Origin: Candidatus Enterousia sp.
GTDB lineage: Bacteria > Pseudomonadota > Alphaproteobacteria > Rs-D84
Length of the DNA: 47,159 bases
Assembly: GCA_045601765.1 (NCBI GenBank)
Contig: JAZSAG010000062.1
Coordinates: 1-47,159, forward strand
Direction of reading: 5' to 3'
Within the stretch, counting starts at the first letter, position 1; every line of letters starts with the position of its first letter. Below the pieces are notes generated by a model. The model searched no databases. It worked only from the letters and a program-made list of their open reading frames with translations, and was not told the origin of the DNA. The position numbers were made by a program, and so were the translations under genes. Below are positions 13,357 through 47,159 of the stretch, one piece after another.

Positions 13357-14238
13357 ATGTTCCGCAAAATATTGATTTGTGCTATGTTTGCAACTGCGGC
13401 GGGCTATTGCTTTGCTGCAGATATGTTACCTCAGGTCGTCACGTCAGAGGTGTTTTATCAACGGGTTGGTGATTTTGATGATGCAGGGTATCAGTATTCA
13501 AATGGTGTTGCCCAGCCGTATGTTCCTGCGTGGCCATTGGCGGGATCTGATGCAGACGTTGTTATTGGTTGTGCAACAGGTGCATGTTCCCAGACAAAAC
13601 AACAGGATAATATTCGTGTTGTGTCTAAGATTGGGTCTGATTTGGTCATAGAAAATGACTTTGATGTCAGTAATTTTGGTGAATTTGCTGGTTGGTCTGG
13701 TGGTGCAAATATGCTGCATGGTACACAAATACCTGCGGGGTTTGATGACGAATGTAATTCTTCTGCGGAAATGCCGTTGTTGCATCGCGAAGTGTTAGAG
13801 GATGATGGTGCAAATGTTTTGGCCGTGTCACGCAGTGGTCGCAAGACATGTGGCAAATATGCAGATTCTTATGATGCGTTTGCTGTAAAAATGGGAATGA
13901 ACGCCGAACAAGAAGAAACAATTGTTACCGAAGAAGAAATCGAGGTTGCTGTTGAATCAGAGGCGCCGGCGCCTGTAATGGATCAGGTTCGTTCTTGGGT
14001 TGTTGCAAATGGTCAGACATTACGTGAAGTGTTACAATCTTGGTGCGACAAAGAGGGTTGGGACCTGGTTTGGGCAACGTCACGTGAATACCCGATTGAG
14101 GCCAGTGCCGTGTTCAAGGGACGCTTTGTTGATGTGGCGTCTGCGTTGGTGCGTAATTTTGGACGCGCAACACCAATCCCATATGCCAAGTTTTACAAGG
14201 GAAACAGGGTGCTAGTTGTTTCAACCAGTGAAGAATAA
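13357..14238 (+). CDS. TcpQ/PilL-domain protein (type IVb pilus accessory)
   Basis: Signal peptide; C-terminal 'WVVANGQTLREVLQSWCDKEGWDLVW...YPIEASAVFKGRF..A...L...FYKGNRVLVV' is typical of the TcpQ domain; directly upstream of a secretin. Confidence 0.8.
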   Translation: MFRKILICAMFATAAGYCFAADMLPQVVTSEVFYQRVGDFDDAGYQYSNGVAQPYVPAWPLAGSDADVVIGCATGACSQTKQQDNIRVVSKIGSDLVIENDFDVSNFGEFAGWSGGANMLHGTQIPAGFDDECNSSAEMPLLHREVLEDDGANVLAVSRSGRKTCGKYADSYDAFAVKMGMNAEQEETIVTEEEIEVAVESEAPAPVMDQVRSWVVANGQTLREVLQSWCDKEGWDLVWATSREYPIEASAVFKGRFVDVASALVRNFGRATPIPYAKFYKGNRVLVVSTSEE

Positions 14239-14272
14239 TTTTTTACAGCCATATCTATAGGAGAATGTAAAT

Positions 14273-15901
14273 ATGTTAAAATCAATGAAAACTTTTGTTC
14301 TGTGTACTTTGGTTGTTGGGACTTTGATGGGATGTGCCAAAGAACAATCGGCCAAGGTTGCCGCATCGGTGGACCAAGATTTTATTAATGCATATGATGC
14401 ATTTGAAATGGCTAAAAATCCACGGGCCAAGGTTGCCAGTGGTGATACTGTTTCTATGTCCGAGGGGGTTTGGCTGGGAAATAAATCTGTGGTTTTAGAA
14501 CACCGGAATAATTTACCCGGAAAATTTGAGACAGATACAGGTGTTACTATATTATTAAATGAACCTGTTTCTTTGCAGGTTTTGGCAAATGATATTTATT
14601 CTGCAACAGGTATTCCTGTGAAAATAGACAGTCAAATTGCCCAGGATAAATTAAGAAAAACTGTAAATGTTGCCTATACTGGTAAATTGTCTGGATTGTT
14701 GTCCCAGGTCGCAACAGATTTAGACCTGCTGTGGTATTATGACAAAAATTCAATTGTGTTTTATGAAACAGAGACAAGAACGTTTACTTTGTTCGCCCTG
14801 GGGACCGAGGTTGCATACCAGACAGCCGTATCAACAGACGATTCTAATGAGGTGTCTTTGCAATCAACATTAAAAGAATGGGACGAAGTAGAAAGTGCAA
14901 TTGCGTCCATTATCGGCAAAAGTGATAATGCAGATTTCACAGTGTCACGCAGTTTAGGTACAATTACTGTGACGGCATCACCATCTGTGTTGGCGCGTGT
15001 GGGTGAATATATTGAACGTCAGAATAAACGTCTGTCGCAATTAATCACAATTGATGTCAAGGTATTACAGGTTACGATTTCTAATGATTCGGCATTTGGT
15101 TTGAATTTGGCGGCGGCTATTAATTCAACGTCTGGGTTAAATATCGTTGCAAACCCAAAGAATAACCTTGCATCGACCGAGGCCAGTTCAATGAATATCG
15201 CGGTATTATCAAATGCGGTGTCTGCATTGACGGGTGCAACACATCTTGAAGGTACAACAACCGTAGAAGGTGCATATACCCAAGATCAGATTATGAATGG
15301 CTCTTTGTCTGGGGCCGCGGGCAGTGCCGCATTGATTGAATCTTTGGCCAAGCAGGGCAAGGTGTCTTTGGTGACAAACGTTGGTGTTACAACACGCAGT
15401 AATCGTGTTGCCCCGGTCAGCAATACACGTACAACCGGATATATTAAACGTTTTGAATCACGTAACTTTACAACTGTTGAATCCAGCACCGTTGACCAAG
15501 ACGATTTGGAAACAGGATTTACAATGCAGTTGTTGCCAAATGTTCTGGAAAATGGCAAGATTTTATTGCTGTTCCGTATGTCGGTGCGTGAATTGTTACG
15601 TATGTCAACCCAGACAATCGGCGAAGTAACCCTGCAATTGCCCGAGGTTGAAGAACGCAGTTTCATGCAAGAAGTTATTATGGAATCTGGGCAAATGCTG
15701 GTTGTGTCTGGGTTTGAAAAGCAGACCAACGAAGATACGCGTTATGGTTTGGGTGATCCTGACTTTATGGCGCTGTCTGGATCGCGCGAATCGTCCGCCA
15801 CGCGTGAGGTTTTGGTTGTTATCTTGACCCCACAGGTTTTGGTCAGCCCAATGGATACCGAGAGAGCGATTCAGCAGAATTGGGGCGCCCCCCTAAACTA
15901 A
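14273..15901 (+). CDS. Type IVb pilus secretin lipoprotein (PilN/BfpB/TcpC-like)
   Basis: Lipobox LMG|C; YTGKLSGLL, GTITVTASPSVLARVGEYI..QNKRL, DVKVLQV, ETGFTMQLLP, LQLPEV, SGQMLVVSGFE, VVILTP. Confidence 0.85.
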   Translation: MLKSMKTFVLCTLVVGTLMGCAKEQSAKVAASVDQDFINAYDAFEMAKNPRAKVASGDTVSMSEGVWLGNKSVVLEHRNNLPGKFETDTGVTILLNEPVSLQVLANDIYSATGIPVKIDSQIAQDKLRKTVNVAYTGKLSGLLSQVATDLDLLWYYDKNSIVFYETETRTFTLFALGTEVAYQTAVSTDDSNEVSLQSTLKEWDEVESAIASIIGKSDNADFTVSRSLGTITVTASPSVLARVGEYIERQNKRLSQLITIDVKVLQVTISNDSAFGLNLAAAINSTSGLNIVANPKNNLASTEASSMNIAVLSNAVSALTGATHLEGTTTVEGAYTQDQIMNGSLSGAAGSAALIESLAKQGKVSLVTNVGVTTRSNRVAPVSNTRTTGYIKRFESRNFTTVESSTVDQDDLETGFTMQLLPNVLENGKILLLFRMSVRELLRMSTQTIGEVTLQLPEVEERSFMQEVIMESGQMLVVSGFEKQTNEDTRYGLGDPDFMALSGSRESSATREVLVVILTPQVLVSPMDTERAIQQNWGAPLN

Positions 15902-18294: not shown

Positions 18295-19317
18295 ATGTCT
18301 GATTTATTTGAAAAATTGTTGATTCTGCGTTCGCCCAGGGTAGGGCCTGTTAAATATACAGAACTGATTAGTAAATTTGGTTCTGCTGATGAGGTGTTAA
18401 GGTATTTGAATATAACGCAAGATTTCAAAGACGCCGTGTTGCGTGAAATGGATTTGGCACGTAAATTAAATATACATTATATATCTGATGAAGATGCCAG
18501 GTACCCGCAAAATTTAAAGGGTCTGCCAAACCGGCCGCCTGTTATAACGGTGCGTGGGAATCTGGATGTTTTAAGTCGATCAATGGTTGGTATGGTGGGG
18601 ACGCGTCATGCCACGGCCGCAGGGCAGAAATTGGTCGCAGACATAGCCCAGGCATTCGCGAATCATGGGCATGTTGTTGTGTCTGGTATGGCAATTGGGA
18701 CCGATTCGGCGGCGCATCGTGGCGCATTGCGGGCCGCAGGCAATGCGCAAACAATTGCTGTGCTGGCGGGTGGGGCAGATTATATTTGGCCAATTGAAAA
18801 CGAATCGTTGTATTACCAGATTTTGGAACGTGGCGCCGTAATCAGTGAAATGCCGGTCGGGTTTGAACCCAGGGCTGCGAACTTTGTGCAGCGCAATCGT
18901 TGGATTGCGGGGTTGTCAGAAAAATTGATATTAGGCGAGGCGGATATGAAGTCTGGTTCTATGACAACAGCCCGATTCGCAATTGATTATGGACGTGATG
19001 TGTGGGCAATCCCATCGCATCCGCTGGATGCGCGGGCGCTGGGACCGAATTCTTTGATTCGGTCGGGAAATGCAAAATTGTGTATGGGGGCACAAGATTT
19101 CTTTGCCGATAGTCAAAAAGAAAAAAATAATAAAAAAATTATTGATAAAAATGATTCGGAAAACATGCTTGTGGATAATTTGGGGAATATTCCTGTTTCA
19201 GAATCTGTATTGGCAGAAATTGTCAAAAAATCGATTTCGGAAATTAAAAGCGAATTGGTTGTCCTTGAATTGCAAGGTTTGGTGCGAAAAGTTGACGGCG
19301 GATATGTAAAATCATAA
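18295..19317 (+). CDS. dprA: DNA-processing protein DprA
   Basis: VGMVGTR, VVSGMAIGTDSAAHRGAL, TIAVLAGG, NFVQRNRWIAGLS, SGSMTTA and C-terminal LELQGLV winged helix. Confidence 0.95.
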   Translation: MSDLFEKLLILRSPRVGPVKYTELISKFGSADEVLRYLNITQDFKDAVLREMDLARKLNIHYISDEDARYPQNLKGLPNRPPVITVRGNLDVLSRSMVGMVGTRHATAAGQKLVADIAQAFANHGHVVVSGMAIGTDSAAHRGALRAAGNAQTIAVLAGGADYIWPIENESLYYQILERGAVISEMPVGFEPRAANFVQRNRWIAGLSEKLILGEADMKSGSMTTARFAIDYGRDVWAIPSHPLDARALGPNSLIRSGNAKLCMGAQDFFADSQKEKNNKKIIDKNDSENMLVDNLGNIPVSESVLAEIVKKSISEIKSELVVLELQGLVRKVDGGYVKS

Positions 19318-39263: not shown

Positions 39264-39704
39264 ATGGCCTGTGCGGATAAATGGTTTTATCGGTTAAGAC
39301 TGTGTTTGTTTGCCATAACAATGGCTTTTGTATCTGAACCGGTGGTTGCGGTGCCGGCGGTGGTTGATTATGTGATTGATGGGGATACATTTGCAGCCGC
39401 TGTTAATATAGCAGATGATATTTCAATAACTGTGCGCGTACGTATATTAAACATAGATACGCCAGAAATACATGGTAAATGCGAATCGGAAATCAACAAG
39501 GCACATCTGGCCAAAGATACGTTATCAAATATTTTGCCACAGGGTACCAAGGTTGAATTGGATTCTGTTAAAGATGATAAATATTTAGGTCGTATTGATG
39601 CAAATGTGGTGTTAAAAGATGGCAGAAATGTTGGCAATATTATGATAAATCGTGGTCTGGCCCGTTCGTATAATGGTGGCAGACGACATGGTTGGTGTAA
39701 ATAA
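39264..39704 (+). CDS. Thermonuclease (SNase-like) family secreted nuclease
   Basis: VIDGDT, VRILNIDTPE, DDKYLGRIDA, MINRGLARSY, terminal WC; N-terminal signal/TM. Confidence 0.9.
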   Translation: MACADKWFYRLRLCLFAITMAFVSEPVVAVPAVVDYVIDGDTFAAAVNIADDISITVRVRILNIDTPEIHGKCESEINKAHLAKDTLSNILPQGTKVELDSVKDDKYLGRIDANVVLKDGRNVGNIMINRGLARSYNGGRRHGWCK

Positions 39705-39728
39705 AAATCCCCAAATGGGGATTTTTTT
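39703..39728. terminator. Bidirectional terminator
   Basis: AAAAATCCCC-AAAT-GGGGATTTTTTT between convergent genes. Confidence 0.85.
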
Positions 39729-40434
39729 ATGCACTGTGCCGGTTAATGGCTTCGCTGATTTCGTCCAGTGATGCATTACATGGTAACAGTGGTTCAAACC
39801 AGACGTTTGCCATCCCAGAATGCATGCGACCTTTTTTGGGCCAATACAGGCCCGCGTCTGTGCCAACCGGCATAATTGGTAATTTCAGTGTGTGGGCTAA
39901 TAATAACAAACCGCGTTTAAGTGGAATTTTTTGTCCGGGTTTCGCACGGGTGCCTTCGGGGAATATTACCAATGTATAGCCGTCCAGGACGCGTTGTTCA
40001 ACAGTGTCGGCCAGTTTTTTCATATTTGTTTTACCGCGGCCGCGATTTACGCCGACCATGCCTGCACGGGCAAATGCCCAGCCGTAAATTGGAATCCACA
40101 ATAATTCACGTTTCATTATAAAGAATGTTTTGGGCATAACCTTGGATATAACTGCGATTTCCAATATGGACATGTGTTTAGATGCAATAATTGCCTTGCC
40201 GTCAAGGCGTTGGTTGCTGTCCGGCATGACAGGAATACCGTTTTCTTCGGTTGCAGGATAATGGACTGTGTATTTTATCCCAGTTATCCAACGGGCAAGT
40301 AATAAAACACCGGCGGCATCTGCAAAAACAAATTTACGTGACAATTTTTTTGAAACCAAACCTATTAATAACACTGGGGTCCATAATGTGAAATATGTGC
40401 CAAGTGTAATTTTAAATATTATTGTTCTTATCAT
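39727..40434 (-). CDS. plsC: 1-acyl-sn-glycerol-3-phosphate acyltransferase
   Basis: ASKHMSILE (H-x4-E variant), KRELLWIPIYGW, IFPEGTR, GLYWP; start taken at MIRTIIF. Confidence 0.88.
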   Translation of the reverse strand: MIRTIIFKITLGTYFTLWTPVLLIGLVSKKLSRKFVFADAAGVLLLARWITGIKYTVHYPATEENGIPVMPDSNQRLDGKAIIASKHMSILEIAVISKVMPKTFFIMKRELLWIPIYGWAFARAGMVGVNRGRGKTNMKKLADTVEQRVLDGYTLVIFPEGTRAKPGQKIPLKRGLLLLAHTLKLPIMPVGTDAGLYWPKKGRMHSGMANVWFEPLLPCNASLDEISEAINRHSA

Positions 40435-40448
40435 AGTTTTTCCTTTGT

Positions 40449-40970
40449 TTAACTTTCTTTGATACCAATCATAGTCACCAAGTATTTTACATATTCTGTG
40501 ACCCATCTTTCAAGTCTTTTTCCAGGTGACATGCCAATCAATGTCGCAGGACATGATATAACATCTGTGTTCGGAATTTCAGACTTAATCAGATATTTTG
40601 CGCGTTGCATGTGGTCTTCGGTTGTGATTATAACGATTCGTGACAGATTGTTTTGCTGGGTTATTTTTTTTATTGCCAATGCGTTCTGGTATGTTGATTT
40701 TGATTTAGATTCAATTATCGCGTCGTGCGCCAGGTTCATGTCATATTGTGATGCGCCTGCACCAATTATGTACAGGTCTGTATCTGGGTATTCTTGCATC
40801 TTTTTTATTGCGAATGGTATTCGGCGCTGGTCCCCGGTTAGTACAAATATACTGTCGTTTTGTTGTATTTCACCGCATTGTCTGGGCGAGGTGGCTTTGA
40901 AAAACATGCCGCCAATTATAAAGCAACTGAATACAACAAATGATGGGGTTAAAAGTAAACGTCTTTTCAT
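40449..40970 (-). CDS. YdcF/DUF218 family protein
   Basis: IFVLTGD.RRI, SKSTYQNA, ITTEDHMQRA, EYVKY; conserved ftsX-ydcF-plsC context. Confidence 0.85.
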   Translation of the reverse strand: MKRRLLLTPSFVVFSCFIIGGMFFKATSPRQCGEIQQNDSIFVLTGDQRRIPFAIKKMQEYPDTDLYIIGAGASQYDMNLAHDAIIESKSKSTYQNALAIKKITQQNNLSRIVIITTEDHMQRAKYLIKSEIPNTDVISCPATLIGMSPGKRLERWVTEYVKYLVTMIGIKES

Positions 40971-40971
40971 A

Positions 40972-41811
40972 TCAGTTGGCTTTTAATATATTAAATGTCG
41001 TGCGACGGGTTATGTAAATTGCAAAAAACATAATCGTAACAGGTAATAATAACAGTAATATCCAACCAAAACCAGAAATGCCTAATGTTGCCATCAGGCC
41101 AACGCGGGCACTGTGCGCAGCAGAAATTATCAATAACAATACAGGTATGGCCGAAATAAACCCAATACCGGTTGCAAGCAGACTGATTTTTCCAACAATT
41201 ATTTGCATTTGATGTGCAACAAATTTATCAGATGCGCCAACCTGGTTCAATATTTCCAATTCGCGCCTGTGCAACAGTGCAGTATTGCGCGCAATGTATG
41301 ATATACATGCGCCAATCGTGCCCAATATTAGTAATAGTACAAACGAAGATATTGCAATCATTTTAAGGCCTGATGATATTGATGGGTTTAACGCGTCAGA
41401 GTGTGGTAAAAACCGGGCGTTTGCAGATATTTGTTCGCCAATATTGTGCATGTCATCTGGGGTTTTAAATTTTACCTCCCATACCTGGGGCAGGTAATTT
41501 TTTAATATTTCGCCACCTGATGATATCCATGGGGCCATTAAATCTTGCATTTGTTCGGTTGAGATTTCGGTAATTTCTGTGATTTTTTCAGAATTGTCGT
41601 CCAGGATTTTTTTGACATCTGACGATTTTTTTGTGTCTGTTACCTGGACGGTTGCGAACAGTTCCCATTGGCTGTTCCAACGCATGACGCCTGTACCAAT
41701 GGCCAATGCAATCCCCAACCCCAGAATTGATAAAAATGACAACAGGGCTAAAATTGCCGTCATAAAGACAGATTGTTCATGTACCAGTGAAAATACTGTA
41801 TTTTTTTTCAT
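40972..41811 (-). CDS. ftsX: Cell division permease FtsX
   Basis: Four TM helices, HRRELEILNQVGASDKFVAHQ; coupled to ftsE. Confidence 0.85.
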   Translation of the reverse strand: MKKNTVFSLVHEQSVFMTAILALLSFLSILGLGIALAIGTGVMRWNSQWELFATVQVTDTKKSSDVKKILDDNSEKITEITEISTEQMQDLMAPWISSGGEILKNYLPQVWEVKFKTPDDMHNIGEQISANARFLPHSDALNPSISSGLKMIAISSFVLLLILGTIGACISYIARNTALLHRRELEILNQVGASDKFVAHQMQIIVGKISLLATGIGFISAIPVLLLIISAAHSARVGLMATLGISGFGWILLLLLPVTIMFFAIYITRRTTFNILKAN

Positions 41812-42605
41812 TACTTGTTCCCAATGTCATCAAATTGCTTTGACAGTTCTGTGAAATAGTTTTGTGGTTTTGGACCGCGCCATGTTTTTTTTGCGTCCGA
41901 TTCGTTTTTGGGGTCGGAATGTTTTGATTTAGTGATAAAATTTACCCGATGATTTTCAACGCGAATAACAGGGAATTTATATGTATCCATCAGTTTTTGA
42001 TTGTGTGTGGCCAGTATTATTGTTGTGCCAAACATTTTGTTCATTTGGATAAATAATTCCATCAATCTGGATGCGTTTTCATCGTCCAAATTTCCCGTTG
42101 GTTCGTCGGCCAGCAATATAGACGGTTGAACAATAATCGCGCGTGCCACAGATACACGTTGCTGTTGCCCCCCTGATAAAGACTTTGGATTTGCGTCGGC
42201 ATATTTGCCCAGACCAACCCAGTCTAGAACCTTGGTCACCAGTTTTTTTATTTTTTTCTCGTCCGTGCCGCGCACGCGCAGGGGCAGGGCAACATTATCA
42301 AAAACACTAAGGTGTGACAGCAATGAGTATTCTTGGAAAACAATGGCCATCTTTTGTCGAATTTTTGTTATTTCATCGCGGGTCATGTCATTTGTGACGT
42401 GCCCAAATAATTTTATTTGGCCACGTGACGGCCTGTGTAGTTGATATATTAATCGTAACAAGGTCGTTTTGCCCGCACCAGATGCCCCAGACAGAAAGTA
42501 AAAACCCCCATTGCCAATATTGAATGATACGTCTGTCAATATTTCTGGGGTGCCGTCATATCGGGCGGCGACATTCGCAAAAGAGATTGTTGTCTTTTCT
42601 TCCAT
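41811..42605 (-). CDS. ftsE: Cell division ATPase FtsE
   Basis: GASGAGKTT, VFQEY.LL.HLSVFDNVALPL, LSGGQQQRV, LADEPTGNLD, ATH. Confidence 0.9.
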   Translation of the reverse strand: MEEKTTISFANVAARYDGTPEILTDVSFNIGNGGFYFLSGASGAGKTTLLRLIYQLHRPSRGQIKLFGHVTNDMTRDEITKIRQKMAIVFQEYSLLSHLSVFDNVALPLRVRGTDEKKIKKLVTKVLDWVGLGKYADANPKSLSGGQQQRVSVARAIIVQPSILLADEPTGNLDDENASRLMELFIQMNKMFGTTIILATHNQKLMDTYKFPVIRVENHRVNFITKSKHSDPKNESDAKKTWRGPKPQNYFTELSKQFDDIGNK

Positions 42606-42736
42606 GTTGGGCAATATAATAAAATTTTAAAGCACGGTCAAATAAAAATAAAAATTGTATAAAATTGTTGTTTTAGTATTTGGAATAAAGTCAAAAATAT
42701 GGTATGATATGTTCAATATTTAGTGGAGGCATATTT

Positions 42737-43600
42737 ATGAAAAAAGTATTTGGTTTGATGTTTGGATTGGTTGCTGTTATGGGTCATGCGATGGCTGCGG
42801 ATGGGACTGATACGTCAAATGTACGCGGCAGTATGTACAGAAATACAACCGATAACATTACTGTTGTTAATAATTTTAAGTTTTCAGGACGCGCACCGCG
42901 TGTGATTTATCCGCAACCTGTGCAAGAGCCTGTGAAACAAGATGTGCAGCCTGAAAAACAACAGGCGTATCAACCTGTTATGTACAGGGGAATGCCGCAT
43001 GTTTGTGGGGCGTGGTACGTTGGTGGGCGCGTAAATCTTAGTATGTTGTCATGGGAAAATGAATACACAACAACGTGGCCGTACATAGATTCAAATTTTG
43101 ATCATGACAAGTATTCTTTTGAACCTGTGTATGGTGGTTCTTTTGCGTTTGGTTATGCGTTTGATACGTCGTGGCGTCTGGAATTAGAGGCCGGTTTAAT
43201 GGGCCGCTTTGAAGATAATGACGAAGGTTTGAATTTTACATTGACTGTGCCGTACGTGATTGCCAATGCATATAATGATTTTTATAATGGGATGTACGTT
43301 GGTGTTGGTTTGGGGTTGGCTGTGCCAAAAACAGAACTGGACGGTGCGCATACAGGTTTGACGTTCGAAGGCGGGCACAGAACAAAACGCCAGGGTTCTT
43401 TGATGGGGGCCGCGATGATTGGTTATGCGTATGATTTGGATTCGCATTTGACATTAGATGTGCGTTATCGTCTGGCGGCGTTTAATGGGACCAGACATGA
43501 AACAGTTATTGATGACGGCACAGACAGGTATGATTTCAGAAATAAAATTGGTTTAATATTGGATAATTCTGTATCGGTTGGATTGCGTTACAGATTCTAA
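42737..43600 (+). CDS. Outer-membrane beta-barrel protein (OmpA/opacity/Msp4-like)
   Basis: Signal peptide; WYVGG, FGYAF..WRLELE, ANAYNDF, YVGVGLG, IGYAYD...LDVRYR; terminal VGLRYRF. Confidence 0.85.
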   Translation: MKKVFGLMFGLVAVMGHAMAADGTDTSNVRGSMYRNTTDNITVVNNFKFSGRAPRVIYPQPVQEPVKQDVQPEKQQAYQPVMYRGMPHVCGAWYVGGRVNLSMLSWENEYTTTWPYIDSNFDHDKYSFEPVYGGSFAFGYAFDTSWRLELEAGLMGRFEDNDEGLNFTLTVPYVIANAYNDFYNGMYVGVGLGLAVPKTELDGAHTGLTFEGGHRTKRQGSLMGAAMIGYAYDLDSHLTLDVRYRLAAFNGTRHETVIDDGTDRYDFRNKIGLILDNSVSVGLRYRF

Positions 43601-43680
43601 GAAGATAAATAATGGCGTTGTTGGGTGGTTGATTTAAAACCCAAAACGTGATAACATATAAGTCAAGTACAGAGAGAGAA

Positions 43681-44811
43681 ATGAAAACAGAAAACAAGAT
43701 ATCAACATTTGCAATTATGTTTGCGCTGTGCGCGGGTGTGACGATGCCTGCATCTGCGGCACCGTCTGTGCGTTCGCTGGGGGGCAGTGGCACTTATTCC
43801 AGTGCGGCCAATGCGGCCCAGGGCGTTGCGCCCAGTGCACCCAGTGCGTCTGCCACCAATAATTCTGGTGGAAATTTGCGCGGTGGTGCAATGCGTGTTG
43901 ATTCGGGCGGAACGATTGGCAGTGTTCGTGCGTCTTCGTCACGTGCGGCGTCTGCGCCACGTTTGTCAATTGGTAAATATCTGACAACGTCTCAAACTGT
44001 TTCTGGGGGTGGGTCTGGTGTTCGTCCGCTACAACAAAGTGGGGGTGATGTATCTGATTCGGATCTAGAAGATATTCGCCAGGATATTACAAACATATAT
44101 AATGAAATTGAAAATATTCAAAACGAATTCAACAGTTATATAGATAAAGAATATACATTTGATTATGATTCTGATACCGGTATGTTGACGGTCAAAGAAG
44201 GGGACGAGACTGTATTAGAAGCGGCAATGGTTACGTTTGCTGATTTACAGGACCTGGAAGACAGATTAAATGCGCTGATTGAACGTCATGTCAATGAAAT
44301 ATATGCGGAAATTGATACTAAACAGGATAAATTAACCCCGGGTACAGGTATTACAATTGATGAAAATAATGTTATTTCATCAACGTCCACGGTTACAAAT
44401 ATCAAAATCGAGGCATTGGAAAACGCGATTGATTCAAAACAGGACGCATTGACGCCGGGGACTGCGATTTCAATAAGTGACGATAATACAATTTCTGTTA
44501 ATGTTGGCAATGGGTTGGCGGTTGATACGGCGACCAATACATTGAATGTAACATTTGACGAGGGTGTAACATACAGTGCCGGTACCGGTATTACCATTGG
44601 GCAAGAGGCGGCCAACACAATTGCAATTGCGTTGACCGGCGGAAATGGTATCAAGGTTAATGGCGCGACGATATCTATGGATACACCAAATGATTCGGGT
44701 AACTATTTTTATAATGTTGGTACCGGTGGTGTTGGCACGTGGAGTCCGTTCGAGGTTGTTGATGCGTCTGCATTAACCGAAACTGTATCTGATGGAACGG
44801 TTGCACAATAA
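43681..44811 (+). CDS. Secreted fibre-like protein 1 (coiled coil plus tail-fibre-like repeats)
   Basis: Signal peptide ...PASA|A; Ser/Ala/Gly linker; heptad coiled coils; repeats KQDKLTPGTGITIDENNVIS and KQDALTPGTAISISDDNTIS, GNGLAVD, YSAGTGITI, GGNGIKVNG. Confidence 0.7.
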   Translation: MKTENKISTFAIMFALCAGVTMPASAAPSVRSLGGSGTYSSAANAAQGVAPSAPSASATNNSGGNLRGGAMRVDSGGTIGSVRASSSRAASAPRLSIGKYLTTSQTVSGGGSGVRPLQQSGGDVSDSDLEDIRQDITNIYNEIENIQNEFNSYIDKEYTFDYDSDTGMLTVKEGDETVLEAAMVTFADLQDLEDRLNALIERHVNEIYAEIDTKQDKLTPGTGITIDENNVISSTSTVTNIKIEALENAIDSKQDALTPGTAISISDDNTISVNVGNGLAVDTATNTLNVTFDEGVTYSAGTGITIGQEAANTIAIALTGGNGIKVNGATISMDTPNDSGNYFYNVGTGGVGTWSPFEVVDASALTETVSDGTVAQ

Positions 44812-44836
44812 TTAAAATGTGGATGTTGGTAATAAT

Positions 44837-45601
44837 ATGACGACTAAAAGTGTTTTTTTATCAGGATTATGTTTTGCACTGGTTGTTGGTGATGTTGTGC
44901 CGGCGGGTGCGGTGCCGACTGTTGTTCCCGATGCCCCGGTTAAAACGGTGATTCAATTGACGTCACGTGATTATGTTGACGGTTTGGTTGCGCCGGTAAA
45001 AAAGATGGTTGATGATCATGATACACTGTTGGGTCATGTTATAATGACAACGACCGTGGATACGGTGACGGGCGCGGTAAACGAATTAAACGATACCAAA
45101 TTAAATATTTCAGGACACGAAGCGGCCCAAATTGTTGTTACGAATGAACTGGGTGCGATTACAACTGCGACGGCTGTTTCCATGGGCCAGGTTAATGGTT
45201 TGACCACAGAATTAAATTCCAAGCAAATTAAATTAACCGAACAAAATTTAAAGGGCAGTGGCAGTGTTGATATCGCATTTGATGAAAATGGTGTTATTAC
45301 TGTTACCGGTGGCGAAGGCATTTCGTACACTGCGGGCGATGCGTATGTATCGGTTAATAATGCCACAGAACAGATTTCTGTGAATGCCGATAAACAAATA
45401 CGCCAGGGAACAGGTCTGGCGACATCCACGGCGGTGGTTGCATATGCATTGCCAAAACCGGTTGATTGCCAGGAATTTACATGTGTATTGTCGGTTGACG
45501 GCAGTGGCGAACCATATTGGATGAAATTAGAACGGTTTTATAATGATGAATCGGATACGGTTTCCGGGGATGATGTGGCACCAACAGATACAACACTGTA
45601 A
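44837..45601 (+). CDS. Secreted fibre-like protein 2
   Basis: Signal-like N-terminus; TSRDYVD, TTTVDTVTGAVNEL, QVNGLTTELNSKQ, YTAGD; C-terminal CQEFTCVLS...YW. Confidence 0.7.
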   Translation: MTTKSVFLSGLCFALVVGDVVPAGAVPTVVPDAPVKTVIQLTSRDYVDGLVAPVKKMVDDHDTLLGHVIMTTTVDTVTGAVNELNDTKLNISGHEAAQIVVTNELGAITTATAVSMGQVNGLTTELNSKQIKLTEQNLKGSGSVDIAFDENGVITVTGGEGISYTAGDAYVSVNNATEQISVNADKQIRQGTGLATSTAVVAYALPKPVDCQEFTCVLSVDGSGEPYWMKLERFYNDESDTVSGDDVAPTDTTL

Positions 45602-45649
45602 TGGTTAATAAATAGGTGTGAAAAAGTTAGGAATAATTGAAAAAAACAC

Positions 45650-45678
45650 TTGTCACGATTTGCAAAAAATGATATCAT
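45650..45678 (+). promoter_or_regulatory. Sigma70-like promoter for the 45808 gene
   Basis: TTGTCA-N17-TATCAT, about 130 nt upstream of the ATG. Confidence 0.5.
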
Positions 45679-45807
45679 TATTACGAATTGAAAATTAATT
45701 TAATGAACAACAACGTATATGGCAGATAGGCGGACCAAGGAAAATAAAGAAATAAACAAAACAAACAAAAAACAAACAACAAGAAAGTTGAAGAAGGGAG
45801 TATATAA

Positions 45808-46740
45808 ATGAAAAAATTAACAGCCGGTATATTGGCATCATTAATTGGTTTGGTATCTGCAAATTCTGCCGACGCAGCCGTCGCATCAAAAGCATACGTT
45901 GATGGTGCGGTTGAATCTTTGGACGTGGCAGCTACTGAGGGTGCTTCTGCCAGACATTTTATTAACAGTGTATCTGAAACAGACGGTAAAATTTCTGCAC
46001 AATATAAAGATTTGCAAGAAGCTATCGTTGGTGGTGGTTCTGTTGAAGTTAGGGTTGTCGAAAGTGGCGACAATGCAGGAAAGTTGGAAGTTTATGGTAC
46101 AGAACATTATGATGAAGGGTTAGGTATTAATATTTCCGATGATAATAAGATTAGTACAGATATCGTGTCGGGGTCTGAGAATGTTAGTGTTACGCCAAGT
46201 GCTGATGGTACACAAGTAGTCATTTCTGTTTCTGAACAAGATATTGCTTCGTATGACTTTGGTGATACAACAACTGTAAATTTGGAAAAAGAAGAGGTTG
46301 ATGGTGGTTTCAAAATTACTGCAACAGGTTTGTATACTGGTGGTAATGGTGTAAATGTTGATGGTAATGTTATTACTACAGATGCTACTGGTACAGGTTC
46401 TGTTACAGTTGACTATAATGAACAAGGGCAGATGGTTATCAATGGCACGGATACAACATATGAAGGTATTCATGATGTAAATATTACAGACGTGAATCAA
46501 GATGGTGTGTTCGAAGTTGGCACAGATTATTATGAAGCAAAGAACACTGATGGCAAGACTGCTACTGAAGGTTGGTATTCTTTGACACGTAAGTGTTCAA
46601 ATGTTGCAGCAGATGGCAGTTTGACAGATACGTCTGTATGTGAATATCAGTGGGAATTGATTGATCGTTCTTATGCTGAGGGTGATTCAGATGTTCCACA
46701 TGATAATGAAGCCGGTAATACACCAGCAACAGGTGCATAA
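45808..46740 (+). CDS. Secreted fibre-like protein 3 (candidate major subunit)
   Basis: Signal peptide ...SADA|A; VASKAYVDG, FINSVSETDGKIS, GLGINISDDNKIST, YTGGNGVNVDGNVIT; C-terminal KC...VCEYQWELI; SD AAGGGAG; T-ending codons typical of highly expressed genes. Confidence 0.75.
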   Translation: MKKLTAGILASLIGLVSANSADAAVASKAYVDGAVESLDVAATEGASARHFINSVSETDGKISAQYKDLQEAIVGGGSVEVRVVESGDNAGKLEVYGTEHYDEGLGINISDDNKISTDIVSGSENVSVTPSADGTQVVISVSEQDIASYDFGDTTTVNLEKEEVDGGFKITATGLYTGGNGVNVDGNVITTDATGTGSVTVDYNEQGQMVINGTDTTYEGIHDVNITDVNQDGVFEVGTDYYEAKNTDGKTATEGWYSLTRKCSNVAADGSLTDTSVCEYQWELIDRSYAEGDSDVPHDNEAGNTPATGA

Positions 46741-46759: not shown

Positions 46760-46793
46760 AAAAAAACATGGGGGTTTTCCCCATGTTTTTTTT
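46760..46793. terminator. Intrinsic terminator
   Basis: AAAAAAACATGGGG-GTTTT-CCCCATGTTTTTTTT. Confidence 0.85.
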
Positions 46794-46870
46794 GTTGCCA
46801 TCATCTTTGTCATTGCAAGCGGACGCGCGGCAATCCAGTCTGTTATTCATCCTTAATTTCTTTCGTTCGT

Positions 46871-46966
46871 ATCCCCCGCGTCGGGGGATTTTTTGTGGGC
46901 AAGTGTAAGTTGTTAGTTGTTAGTGGTTAGTGGGAAGTGGTGGTGGGATGATTTTTCTTTTGTCAT
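46871..46966 (-). repeat. Composite intergenic module (REP end, heptamer repeats, hairpin) homologous to 16265-16346
   Basis: The reverse complement reads ATGACAAAAGAAAAATCATCC...ACTAACCACTAACAACTAACAAC.TACACTTGCCCA.AAAAAATCCCCCGA...GGGGGA and aligns with 16266-16345. Confidence 0.7.
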
Positions 46967-47087
46967 CCTGGGGCTTGTTCGGGCCCCGCAAAAATGAAAT
47001 TTTTCCTCTGTCATCCTGGGGCTTGTTTGGGCCCCGCAAAAATGAAATTTTTCCTCTGTCATCCTGGGGCTTGACCCCATGACCCAG
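46961..47087. repeat. 48-bp tandem repeat (about 2.6 copies) of REP-like GTCATCCTGGGGCTTG units
   Basis: Units start at 46961, 47009 and 47057; the last reads TGTCATCCTGGGGCTTGACCCCATGACCCAG, similar to alphaproteobacterial GTCAT-type REP palindromes. Confidence 0.85.
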
Positions 47088-47159
47088 GTTTGGCCTTATT
47101 ATCACTTGCACCCAACGTGGTATTTTGTTCGGTTCGTAATATGAAAACTTAAAACCTTG

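Follow-up and report, generated by a model that had tools for sequence, protein, structure and literature searches.

The closest described counterparts of the genes considered here are the mosaic adhesive trimer (MAT) fibres of Bdellovibrio bacteriovorus. According to excerpts of the published account, MAT proteins carry a signal peptide, form phage-like intertwined trimers and are found on the predator surface (PMC10769870). They have an invariable β-rich N-terminal domain of ~130 residues next to the cell and variable tips, and 13 of 21 MATs contain an S74 chaperone-protease domain (PMC10769870, same excerpts). Here, we analyse four co-oriented genes, encoding an outer-membrane β-barrel protein and three proteins termed A, B and C, near the end of contig JAZSAG010000062.1 of Candidatus Enterousia sp. 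(assembly GCA_045601765.1; 47,159 nucleotides (nt), hereafter the window). Enterousia belongs to the order Rs-D84 of the Alphaproteobacteria and comprises uncultured gut bacteria with genomes of ~1 Mb; as far as the excerpted source goes, they have no flagella, a reduced genome and many missing pathways, are proposed to take metabolites from other cells and are widespread in the guts of humans, ruminants and birds (PMC12306168). Taking all parts of the reading together, we consider it likely that the four genes represent, in this species, a cell-envelope locus specific to the Candidatus Enterousia lineage, which encodes exported, phage-like trimeric fibres that likely attach the cell to partner cells or host material.

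All four open reading frames (ORFs) lie on the plus strand where an earlier note, made from the DNA letters, had placed them (Table 1). Its description of a barrel gene followed by three genes for signal-peptide proteins holds: the first product matches Pfam OMP_b-brl, and A, B and C each begin, as read by eye from the sequence, with an n-region containing K/R, followed by a hydrophobic core and a cleavage site of the A-x-A type. A canonical lipobox is absent from A, B and C, and none of them gave a match above noise in Pfam, NCBIfam or PHROG, autotransporter and YadA-anchor families included. The shaft of A is nevertheless built from modules that are, judging from sequence similarity, homologous to those of phage tail fibres. 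A search with residues 200-376 of A against 1.84 billion protein representatives returned 130 proteins at E ≤ 0.001 (10 of them at E ≤ 1e-10), and many of these relatives contain up to 10 matched stretches of a KQDKLT-G-x-G-I-x-I-D-x-N-x-I-S module. Among the best 45 of the 126 distant hits, which the family scans covered, 20 have a PHROG match (E ≤ 1e-5), and in 14 of these the matched family belongs to tail fibres, tails, head fibres or connectors. Pfam scans of the same 45 proteins found Adeno_shaft twice (35.8 and 54.2 bits, cut-off 30) and Phage_head_fibr, Peptidase_S74, Peptidase_G2, BppU_N, Collagen and C1q once each. Moreover, one member of the A family (P0081) passes Av_adeno_fibre (28.6 bits, cut-off 22.7). 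The phage-tail-fibre-like modules proposed in the earlier note are thus borne out, as is its statement that phage relatives normally have no signal peptide: a signal-peptide-like start is seen in 2 of the 126 distant hits, and a YVD start in none.

The locus is conserved throughout the genus. A scan with an alignment of C recovered 65 related loci from about as many metagenome-assembled genomes, in which the gene order is ftsEX, barrel, A, one to six fibre genes and lepA. The A gene is present in 53 of these loci and the barrel gene in 51; in all 51 loci with both, A follows the barrel gene with a gap of at most 250 nt. Divergent ftsE lies upstream in 49 of the 51, the other two being cut by contig ends, and the 12 loci that lack A are truncated on their upstream side; lepA lies downstream in 37 of the 65. 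The one to six genes between A and lepA encode signal-peptide proteins of recurring classes, with one to three MKVKNIAFSGF proteins, one MKKLTAGI protein (the class of C) and often one MKKILTxSLVAMMAV protein per locus. The nearest species (locus L029) has the same set as the window, namely barrel, A, B and C, suggesting that the gene set of the window may be complete. A profile of the N-terminal region of A matched 139 of 151 genomes of the same genus, 6 of 20 genomes of the family's other genera and 0 of 29 genomes of the order's other families. In the four distinct genomes searched with a profile of the fibre N-termini, all strong matches (E ≤ 1e-8) fall in this locus. The earlier note had asked whether homologs occur mainly in prophage or gene-transfer-agent tail modules; they occupy a single locus between ftsEX and lepA, and no HK97 capsid gene was found in the four genomes.

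Structural modelling points to a trimeric fibre for C. Modelled in three copies with its own alignment, C reached a score of 0.78, and the best of three controls reached 0.00. In calibration on proteins of solved structure, 20 of 30 that form pairs of one chain attained the mark applied to this score, compared with 1 of 23 that are single chains; these runs used two copies and other alignments, and the C run used three copies and our alignment. Contact agreement between the C runs was at least 68% and the partner pLDDT (predicted local distance difference test) at least 74. About 1000 contacts extend from residue 24 to 285, with the C-terminal hairpin domain in the interface, and the copies touch each other through the same residues at positions 189, 199, 211, 215 and 259. 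Contacts along the whole length together with same-residue contacts suggest a parallel, in-register three-fold fibre. The homotrimer modelling that the earlier note had recommended therefore came out in favour of its proposal for C, whose three copies lie in register in the model. As solved structures include many trimeric fibres, likeness may account for part of this pass.

A short N-terminal motif is shared by nearly all fibre paralogs. Downstream of A, as far as lepA or the end of the contig, the related loci contain 326 ORFs, and 200 of them (181 unique) pass a crude filter for signal peptide plus motif. The motif [IVL]-A-S-[KTQ]-x-Y-V-D is found just past the signal peptide in 167 of the 181 unique paralogs of related loci, a number that places it beyond chance. 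The consensus start is A-x-I-A-S-K-x-Y-V-D, with Ser or Thr in 100%, Val in 94% and Asp in 78% of the respective columns, and the Tyr has a median precursor position of 29, a few residues after the A-x-A site. The earlier note had advised counting such paralogs and testing their linkage to the barrel; A adjoins the barrel gene in all 51 loci with both. Of the 155 unique Enterousia paralogs with 200 residues or more, 106 were scanned against Pfam, and 98 of them gave no match at E ≤ 0.001. The eight matches include Fibritin_C at 35.8 bits, above its cut-off, and Phage_head_fibr and YadA_head (the latter in 1 of the 106), both under cut-off. Peptidase_S74 was found neither in A, B and C nor in the 106 paralogs.

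In C, the motif AVASKAYVD forms residues 24-32, the start of the predicted mature protein, and in the AlphaFold2 (AF2) monomer model the nine-residue motif is followed by helix up to residue 40. Conservation along C was derived from 31 of its 53 homologs, leaving out four partial matches and 18 that match at the N-terminus only. Mean pairwise identity is 99% for residues 1-27, 43% for residues 28-70, 33% for the shaft (residues 71-250), which also has many indels, and 50% for the C-terminal hairpin domain (residues 251-292). Since the codons of the C signal peptide differ synonymously between species, selection acts on the signal peptide itself. The hairpin domain, with strands at 256-264 and 277-285 and a pLDDT of 93, is the sole confident part of the AF2 monomer; L259, Y280, W282, E283, R287 and Y289 are invariant in it. 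It is a possible trimerisation nucleus and may resemble the small C-terminal trimerisation domain of T4 fibritin. A metagenome scan with the C alignment returned 23 loci, none of which has an identical signal peptide. The C profile had 0 matches in PDB sequences at E ≤ 10, and the best ESM Atlas score for C was 0.79, below the usable level.

The conserved ends of C enclose a rapidly changing middle. Identity to the nearest species is 83-95% for tolB, plsC, DUF218, ftsX and ftsE, 77% for the barrel, 65% for A and 43% for C. At the DNA level, homology to this species is unbroken from 39347 to 45904 and ends directly after the motif of C. Variation also occurs within the species. A 5809-nt contig of run X2, evidently from the same species, differs at 81 letters over 40862-46118 (98.5% identical); there, 408 nt at 46118-46527 are replaced by 228 other letters, and the match resumes at 46527. 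A block inside C is therefore replaced between near-identical strains.

C further shows the signs of an abundant component. The -10 region of the promoter-like site ahead of it is kept in the two nearest species, and the Shine-Dalgarno sequence is kept as GAAAGAAAGGAA-like in seven species. With tuf, fusA, rpsL and rpsG from this genome as the reference, C has a codon adaptation of 0.649 and ranks at the 97.6th percentile among 492 ORFs no shorter than 250 residues; the barrel, A and B lie at the 51st, 46th and 37th percentiles. The promoter-like site, Shine-Dalgarno sequence, terminator and ribosomal-type codon usage suggest that C is abundant and, on such sequence signals, probably the major fibre. 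The earlier note had credited the last gene with its own promoter, strong Shine-Dalgarno sequence, biased codons and terminator and had proposed one major subunit, and both proposals agree with these data.

The same properties could be expected of a variable surface coat or major antigen, that is, a dense fibrillar or S-layer-like cover of C and its paralogs, held by the conserved N-terminus, whose variation would serve escape from host immunity, phages or predators. Such a coat would account for the strong expression signals and high codon adaptation of C, for extreme variation between and within species while the ends are conserved, and for several paralogs with a common anchoring end. S-layer gene families such as Sap of Campylobacter fetus are presumably built in the same manner, with a shared anchoring end. 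The trimer contacts along the whole chain and the axis residues, however, suggest a fibre over a lattice subunit, and the relatives of the shaft are receptor-binding fibres of phages. We therefore regard a coat as an unlikely primary role, though one that is compatible with a role in adhesion.

Protein A might link the fibres to the envelope. Its parts are, in order, a signal peptide, a motif-bearing low-complexity region, a coiled coil, shaft repeats and a small C-terminal Trp segment. It has 59 homologs, and between species its length ranges from 204 to 1064 residues, the shaft being highly variable in length. The N-terminal region of mature A, which is Arg-rich and disordered, contains the invariant motifs SVRxLGGxGTY, RGGxxRV and TRxAxxPRLSIGKYL amid Ser/Thr/Ala/Gly-rich low-complexity sequence and is a candidate for the anchoring part. 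Searches of PDB sequences with A, as a single sequence and as a profile, gave coiled-coil noise and adenovirus fibre at E 0.6-1 only. The signal peptide of A (43681-43758), like that of each fibre class, is conserved far beyond the needs of export, and a Cys in its hydrophobic core is nearly invariant. A lipoprotein was considered for A and ruled out, as this Cys17 lies in V-L-C, which is not a lipobox.

In protein B (eight homologs; 77% identical in the nearest species), the signal peptide is followed by LTSRDYVD (residues 41-48, positions 44957-44980) and a turn of the G-S-G-S-V type, and the C-terminal part has a Cys pair and a Trp segment before an acidic tail. The translations contain TSRDYVD in B, ASKAYVD in C, KQDKL and KQDAL in A and KQIKL in B; G-x-G-[IV]-x-[IV] turns recur, C-terminal Trp segments are followed by acidic tails, and B and C have Cys pairs. 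The motif vocabulary that the earlier note ascribed to all three proteins is thus present, with YVD restricted to B and C. Its further claim of a common C-terminal Trp domain fares less well: the Trp segments and acidic tails can be seen, but a hidden Markov model (HMM) of the C-terminal domain of C, which matched 36 ORFs of related loci at E ≤ 10, did not match A and B of the window. The common domain is therefore a pattern seen by eye, and its homology is not supported by the HMM. Own-genome phmmer searches found no paralogs of A or C. With B, two weak matches were obtained (C44:15448-15723, E 0.0013; C38:1481-1879, E 0.0033), both short ORFs with a signal peptide and then LTSR(G/D)YVD as in B; they may represent additional small members, or fragments, located away from the locus.

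The barrel protein consists of a signal peptide, a disordered Pro/Gln-rich stretch (residues ~20-90), a barrel (residues 92-286) and the end ...RYRF. Pfam OMP_b-brl covers residues 92-287 (33.2 bits, cut-off 28.7). In the AF2 model (pLDDT 76.7, barrel blocks mostly >90), eight long strands occupy residues 92-286, and the best Foldseek matches are the 8-stranded OmpA transmembrane domain, OprG/OmpW, Ail, NspA and OmpX, with a TM-score of 0.6-0.7 on the target. The barrel profile matched nothing in the PDB by sequence. As modelled, the protein is a closed 8-stranded OmpA/OmpW-like barrel. The earlier note had proposed display of the fibres through this barrel, which fails on the model: eight strands leave no room for a polypeptide, and the barrel was ruled out as a translocation pore. 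Its strict linkage to A suggests that it is part of an anchoring base, and it could thus anchor the fibres.

Because the locus has Sec signals, yet no recognised outer-membrane export device beside a barrel of only eight strands, the fibres might also stay inside the envelope, as struts that tether the barrel or outer membrane to the peptidoglycan or inner membrane in the manner of a long Lpp. The conservation of both ends of C and the Arg-rich N-terminal region of A would suit such struts. Hypervariability and block replacement within a species are, however, unusual for periplasmic structural proteins. Furthermore, the widely varying lengths (A from 204 to 1064 residues, fibre ORFs from ~120 to 770) fit poorly with a fixed periplasmic width, and we give struts a small chance.

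Candidate components of another route across the outer membrane are present in the genome, namely a single Omp85/BamA gene, TolC-like genes, T2SSE ATPases and a secretin. This secretin, the only one found in the genome, is encoded in the window, where a TcpQ-like gene and the secretin gene follow one another at 13357-15901 (secretin at 14273-15901), with dprA at 18295-19317; the pair may belong to a DNA-uptake or type II/IV-like system. Fibres secreted to the medium, for example by this secretin system with the T2SSE-type ATPases, would act as binding or blocking proteins at a distance, and A, B and C indeed have no recognisable membrane anchor. Attachment is suggested instead by the conservation of the N-terminal motif and by the strict linkage to the barrel and A, and the secretin, 27 kilobases off and near dprA, may serve DNA uptake; release has a slim chance of being the explanation. 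Finally, the homology of the shaft modules to phage tail fibres could mean that the genes are remnants of prophage or gene-transfer-agent tail-fibre genes without a cellular role, which deserves hardly any credence given the identical chromosomal place and order in all 51 barrel and A loci, the A profile in 139 of 151 genus genomes, signal peptides that phage relatives do not have, the lack of an HK97 capsid gene (four genomes) and of any phage family among the 35 window ORFs, the intact frames and the adapted codon usage of C.

For the favoured reading of exported, phage-like trimeric fibres, we infer cleavage, folding site, surface exposure, outer-membrane route, anchoring partner and adhesion as follows. 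Each chain would be exported unfolded by Sec and then cut by signal peptidase I. Three chains would then assemble into a parallel fibre outside the cytoplasm, a process probably nucleated by the C-terminal hairpin domain, and disulfides would probably stabilise the product. The conserved N-terminal motif would fix the fibre to a conserved envelope partner, for which A and the barrel are candidates, and the fast-changing shaft would stay exposed. C would be the abundant fibre, likely used for attachment to partner cells or host material. Shaft blocks might be exchanged between strains via recombination within the conserved ends. In a bolder and rather doubtful version of this mechanism, the ten-residue mature N-terminus would act as a plug that inserts phage-derived trimers into a socket formed by A and the 8-stranded barrel. 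If so, the locus would be a cellular counterpart of the phage baseplate with interchangeable receptor-binding proteins, and a genome-reduced, partner-dependent gut bacterium would gain exchangeable host-recognition fibres whose shafts are swapped by recombination.

Several observations weigh against trimeric surface fibres of this kind. A tblastn search of A and C against 50,697 phage records found no match, and A, B and C of the window remain below the Adeno_shaft and phage-fibre models (none at E ≤ 1). The trimer is a model, obtained for C alone among A, B and C. The AF2 monomer of C is poor, with a pLDDT of 58.7, as expected for such a protein; in a wide search with this model only the N-terminal helix was matched, with Z at most 4.1. 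The YVD motif is absent from A, and in B it lies 16 residues past the predicted cleavage site. According to its model, the adjoining barrel cannot serve as the outer-membrane route of the fibres. A distal adhesive tip is expected to be the most variable part, yet the C-terminal domain of C is better conserved than the shaft, suggesting that a role in folding or as a second attachment fits this domain better than that of a receptor-binding tip.

Table 1. Features of the fibre locus in the window.
Feature	Position	Strand	Remarks
Outer-membrane β-barrel gene	42737..43600	+	Pfam OMP_b-brl, AF2 model
Protein A gene, 376 residues from ATG	43681..44811	+	Start of longest ORF is GTG at 43648
Conserved N-terminal region of mature A	43759..44013	+	Invariant columns in 33 sequences
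A shaft repeats and C-terminal end, including KQDKLTPGTGITIDENNVIS-type modules	44278..44808	+	130 distant matches, E ≤ 0.001
Protein B gene, 254 residues	44837..45601	+	Longer ORF start at 44819
Promoter-like site before C	45650..45678	+	TTGTCA, 17 nt, TATCAT, TG ahead; from consensus scan only
Shine-Dalgarno GAAGGGAG of C	45793..45800	+	7 nt before ATG, A-rich leader ahead
Protein C gene, 310 residues	45808..46740	+	F2 class beginning MKKLTAGI; 53 homologs
C signal peptide and mature N-terminal motif	45808..45903	+	Cleavage predicted at ADA|A, giving a signal peptide of residues 1-23
Variable shaft block of C	46118..46527	+	Replaced in run X2 contig
C-terminal β-hairpin domain of C	46558..46683	+	Residues 251-292, Cys pair, invariant Trp; acidic tail after
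Two-way hairpin terminator after C	46760..46792	.	14-pair stem between A and T runs

The homologs of A and B start at ATG 43681 and ATG 44837, respectively. The rest of the window has a housekeeping character (gatAB, dnaA, gyrB, dnaJ, uvrC, dnaN, efp, tolB, plsC, ftsEX), and the absence of phage genes nearby noted earlier is confirmed, as no phage family was found among the 35 window ORFs. Usher and periplasmic chaperone families were found neither in the locus genes nor in their neighbours, and this search did not extend to the rest of the genome. The contig ends 420 nt past C, probably because positions 46800-47159 form a dispersed intergenic repeat of ~55-nt units. This repeat has 126 short blastn matches over more than 20 contigs of the genome and a depth of 93-196 in public contigs, compared with 5-13 in the flanks, with variable joints. 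Another own-genome contig carries at its end (G000 C61:11670-13883) lepA together with the small gene found ahead of lepA in related loci; this stretch probably continues the locus on the other side of the assembly gap.

Some further observations concern the relatives and other surface proteins. Two related loci with Enterousia fibre genes, L059 and L069, stem from bins labelled Bacteroides fragilis and Clostridia, which are probably binning errors. In the nearest species, C is followed by a gene for a 1073-residue Cys-rich signal-peptide protein (L029:11880-15101), the ortholog of which is encoded on another own-genome contig (G000 C35:22547-25891). The own genome also encodes three paralogous Cys-rich secreted proteins of ~460-480 residues (G000 C21:2644-4029, C24:8036-9481 and C47:17967-19397) with a GYTFTGW-type repeat at the end, another candidate surface family. 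We take this repeat to resemble the Listeria-Bacteroides repeat.

The locus is the most conserved and yet the fastest-evolving envelope feature of the genus seen in this analysis. It is made of parts of phage receptor-binding proteins, its fibre proteins fall outside every curated family, and it is a testable candidate for how Enterousia recognises or holds its partner or host. The conserved ends and variable middle would also be convenient markers with which to type strains in metagenomes. The literature searches, which covered open-access papers and preprints, found no account of this locus and returned only the MAT paper as a related one. In the PDB sequence searches (E ≤ 10), no Bdellovibrio entry appeared by molecule name or in the alignments shown, in which the source organism is not listed.

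Compared with known systems, the KQDKLT-G-x-G-I-x-I-x-x-N-x-I-S modules are homologous to those of phage and adenovirus shafts, and a trimer is modelled for C. Phage fibres fold in the cytoplasm. The phage proteins have no signal peptides, whereas the Enterousia proteins are chromosomal and syntenic across the genus and have their own N-terminal motif. Like type Vc adhesins (YadA family), the fibres would be Sec-exported trimeric fibrous adhesins with coiled coils, and some type Vc adhesins likewise have unusually conserved signal peptides. In contrast to them, A, B and C have no C-terminal YadA anchor, and the conserved end is the N-terminus; the anchor (PF03895) was found at 0 places in the own genome and in one of four genomes searched, elsewhere in that genome. 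As the anchor is absent, the locus is not a trimeric autotransporter, and it is neither of chaperone-usher type nor prophage-borne. The Sap S-layer proteins of Campylobacter fetus and BclA of the Bacillus exosporium are, we assume, variable and abundant surface proteins with several paralogs that are fixed by a short conserved N-terminus. They use other export routes and have no sequence relation to the fibres; the likeness is an analogy only.

The MAT fibres remain the closest case, and the following comparison refers to the excerpted account of them (PMC10769870). Both are cellular proteins with a signal peptide and phage-tail-fibre-like trimeric shafts, which are modelled in Enterousia. Both have a conserved cell-proximal N-terminal end (putative here), a variable mosaic remainder and many paralogs per genome. 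Moreover, the MAT host must recognise other cells, and Enterousia is probably partner-dependent. The earlier note had placed these genes in an adhesin class outside the known schemes. This holds with respect to autotransporters and chaperone-usher systems but is overstated otherwise, because the MAT fibres already are phage-like trimeric surface fibres with a Sec signal (PMC10769870). The differences lie in the architecture. Where the MAT signal peptide is followed by the β-rich domain of ~130 residues, the Enterousia fibres have a motif of ~10 residues leading into a helix; they have no S74 domain (106 paralogs scanned), are much shorter (~230-770 residues, compared with ~1000) and share one locus with the genes of a barrel and a base protein. 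If the fibres are displayed on the surface as we propose, the locus adds to the MAT fibres a second, independent example of phage fibres that bacteria have turned into Sec-exported surface organelles. The short N-terminal motif and A point to an anchoring mechanism, which is unsolved even for MAT fibres. Hence, the fibre logic is shared with MAT and the defining N-terminal domain is not, and the different anchoring end is the new aspect of the Enterousia locus.

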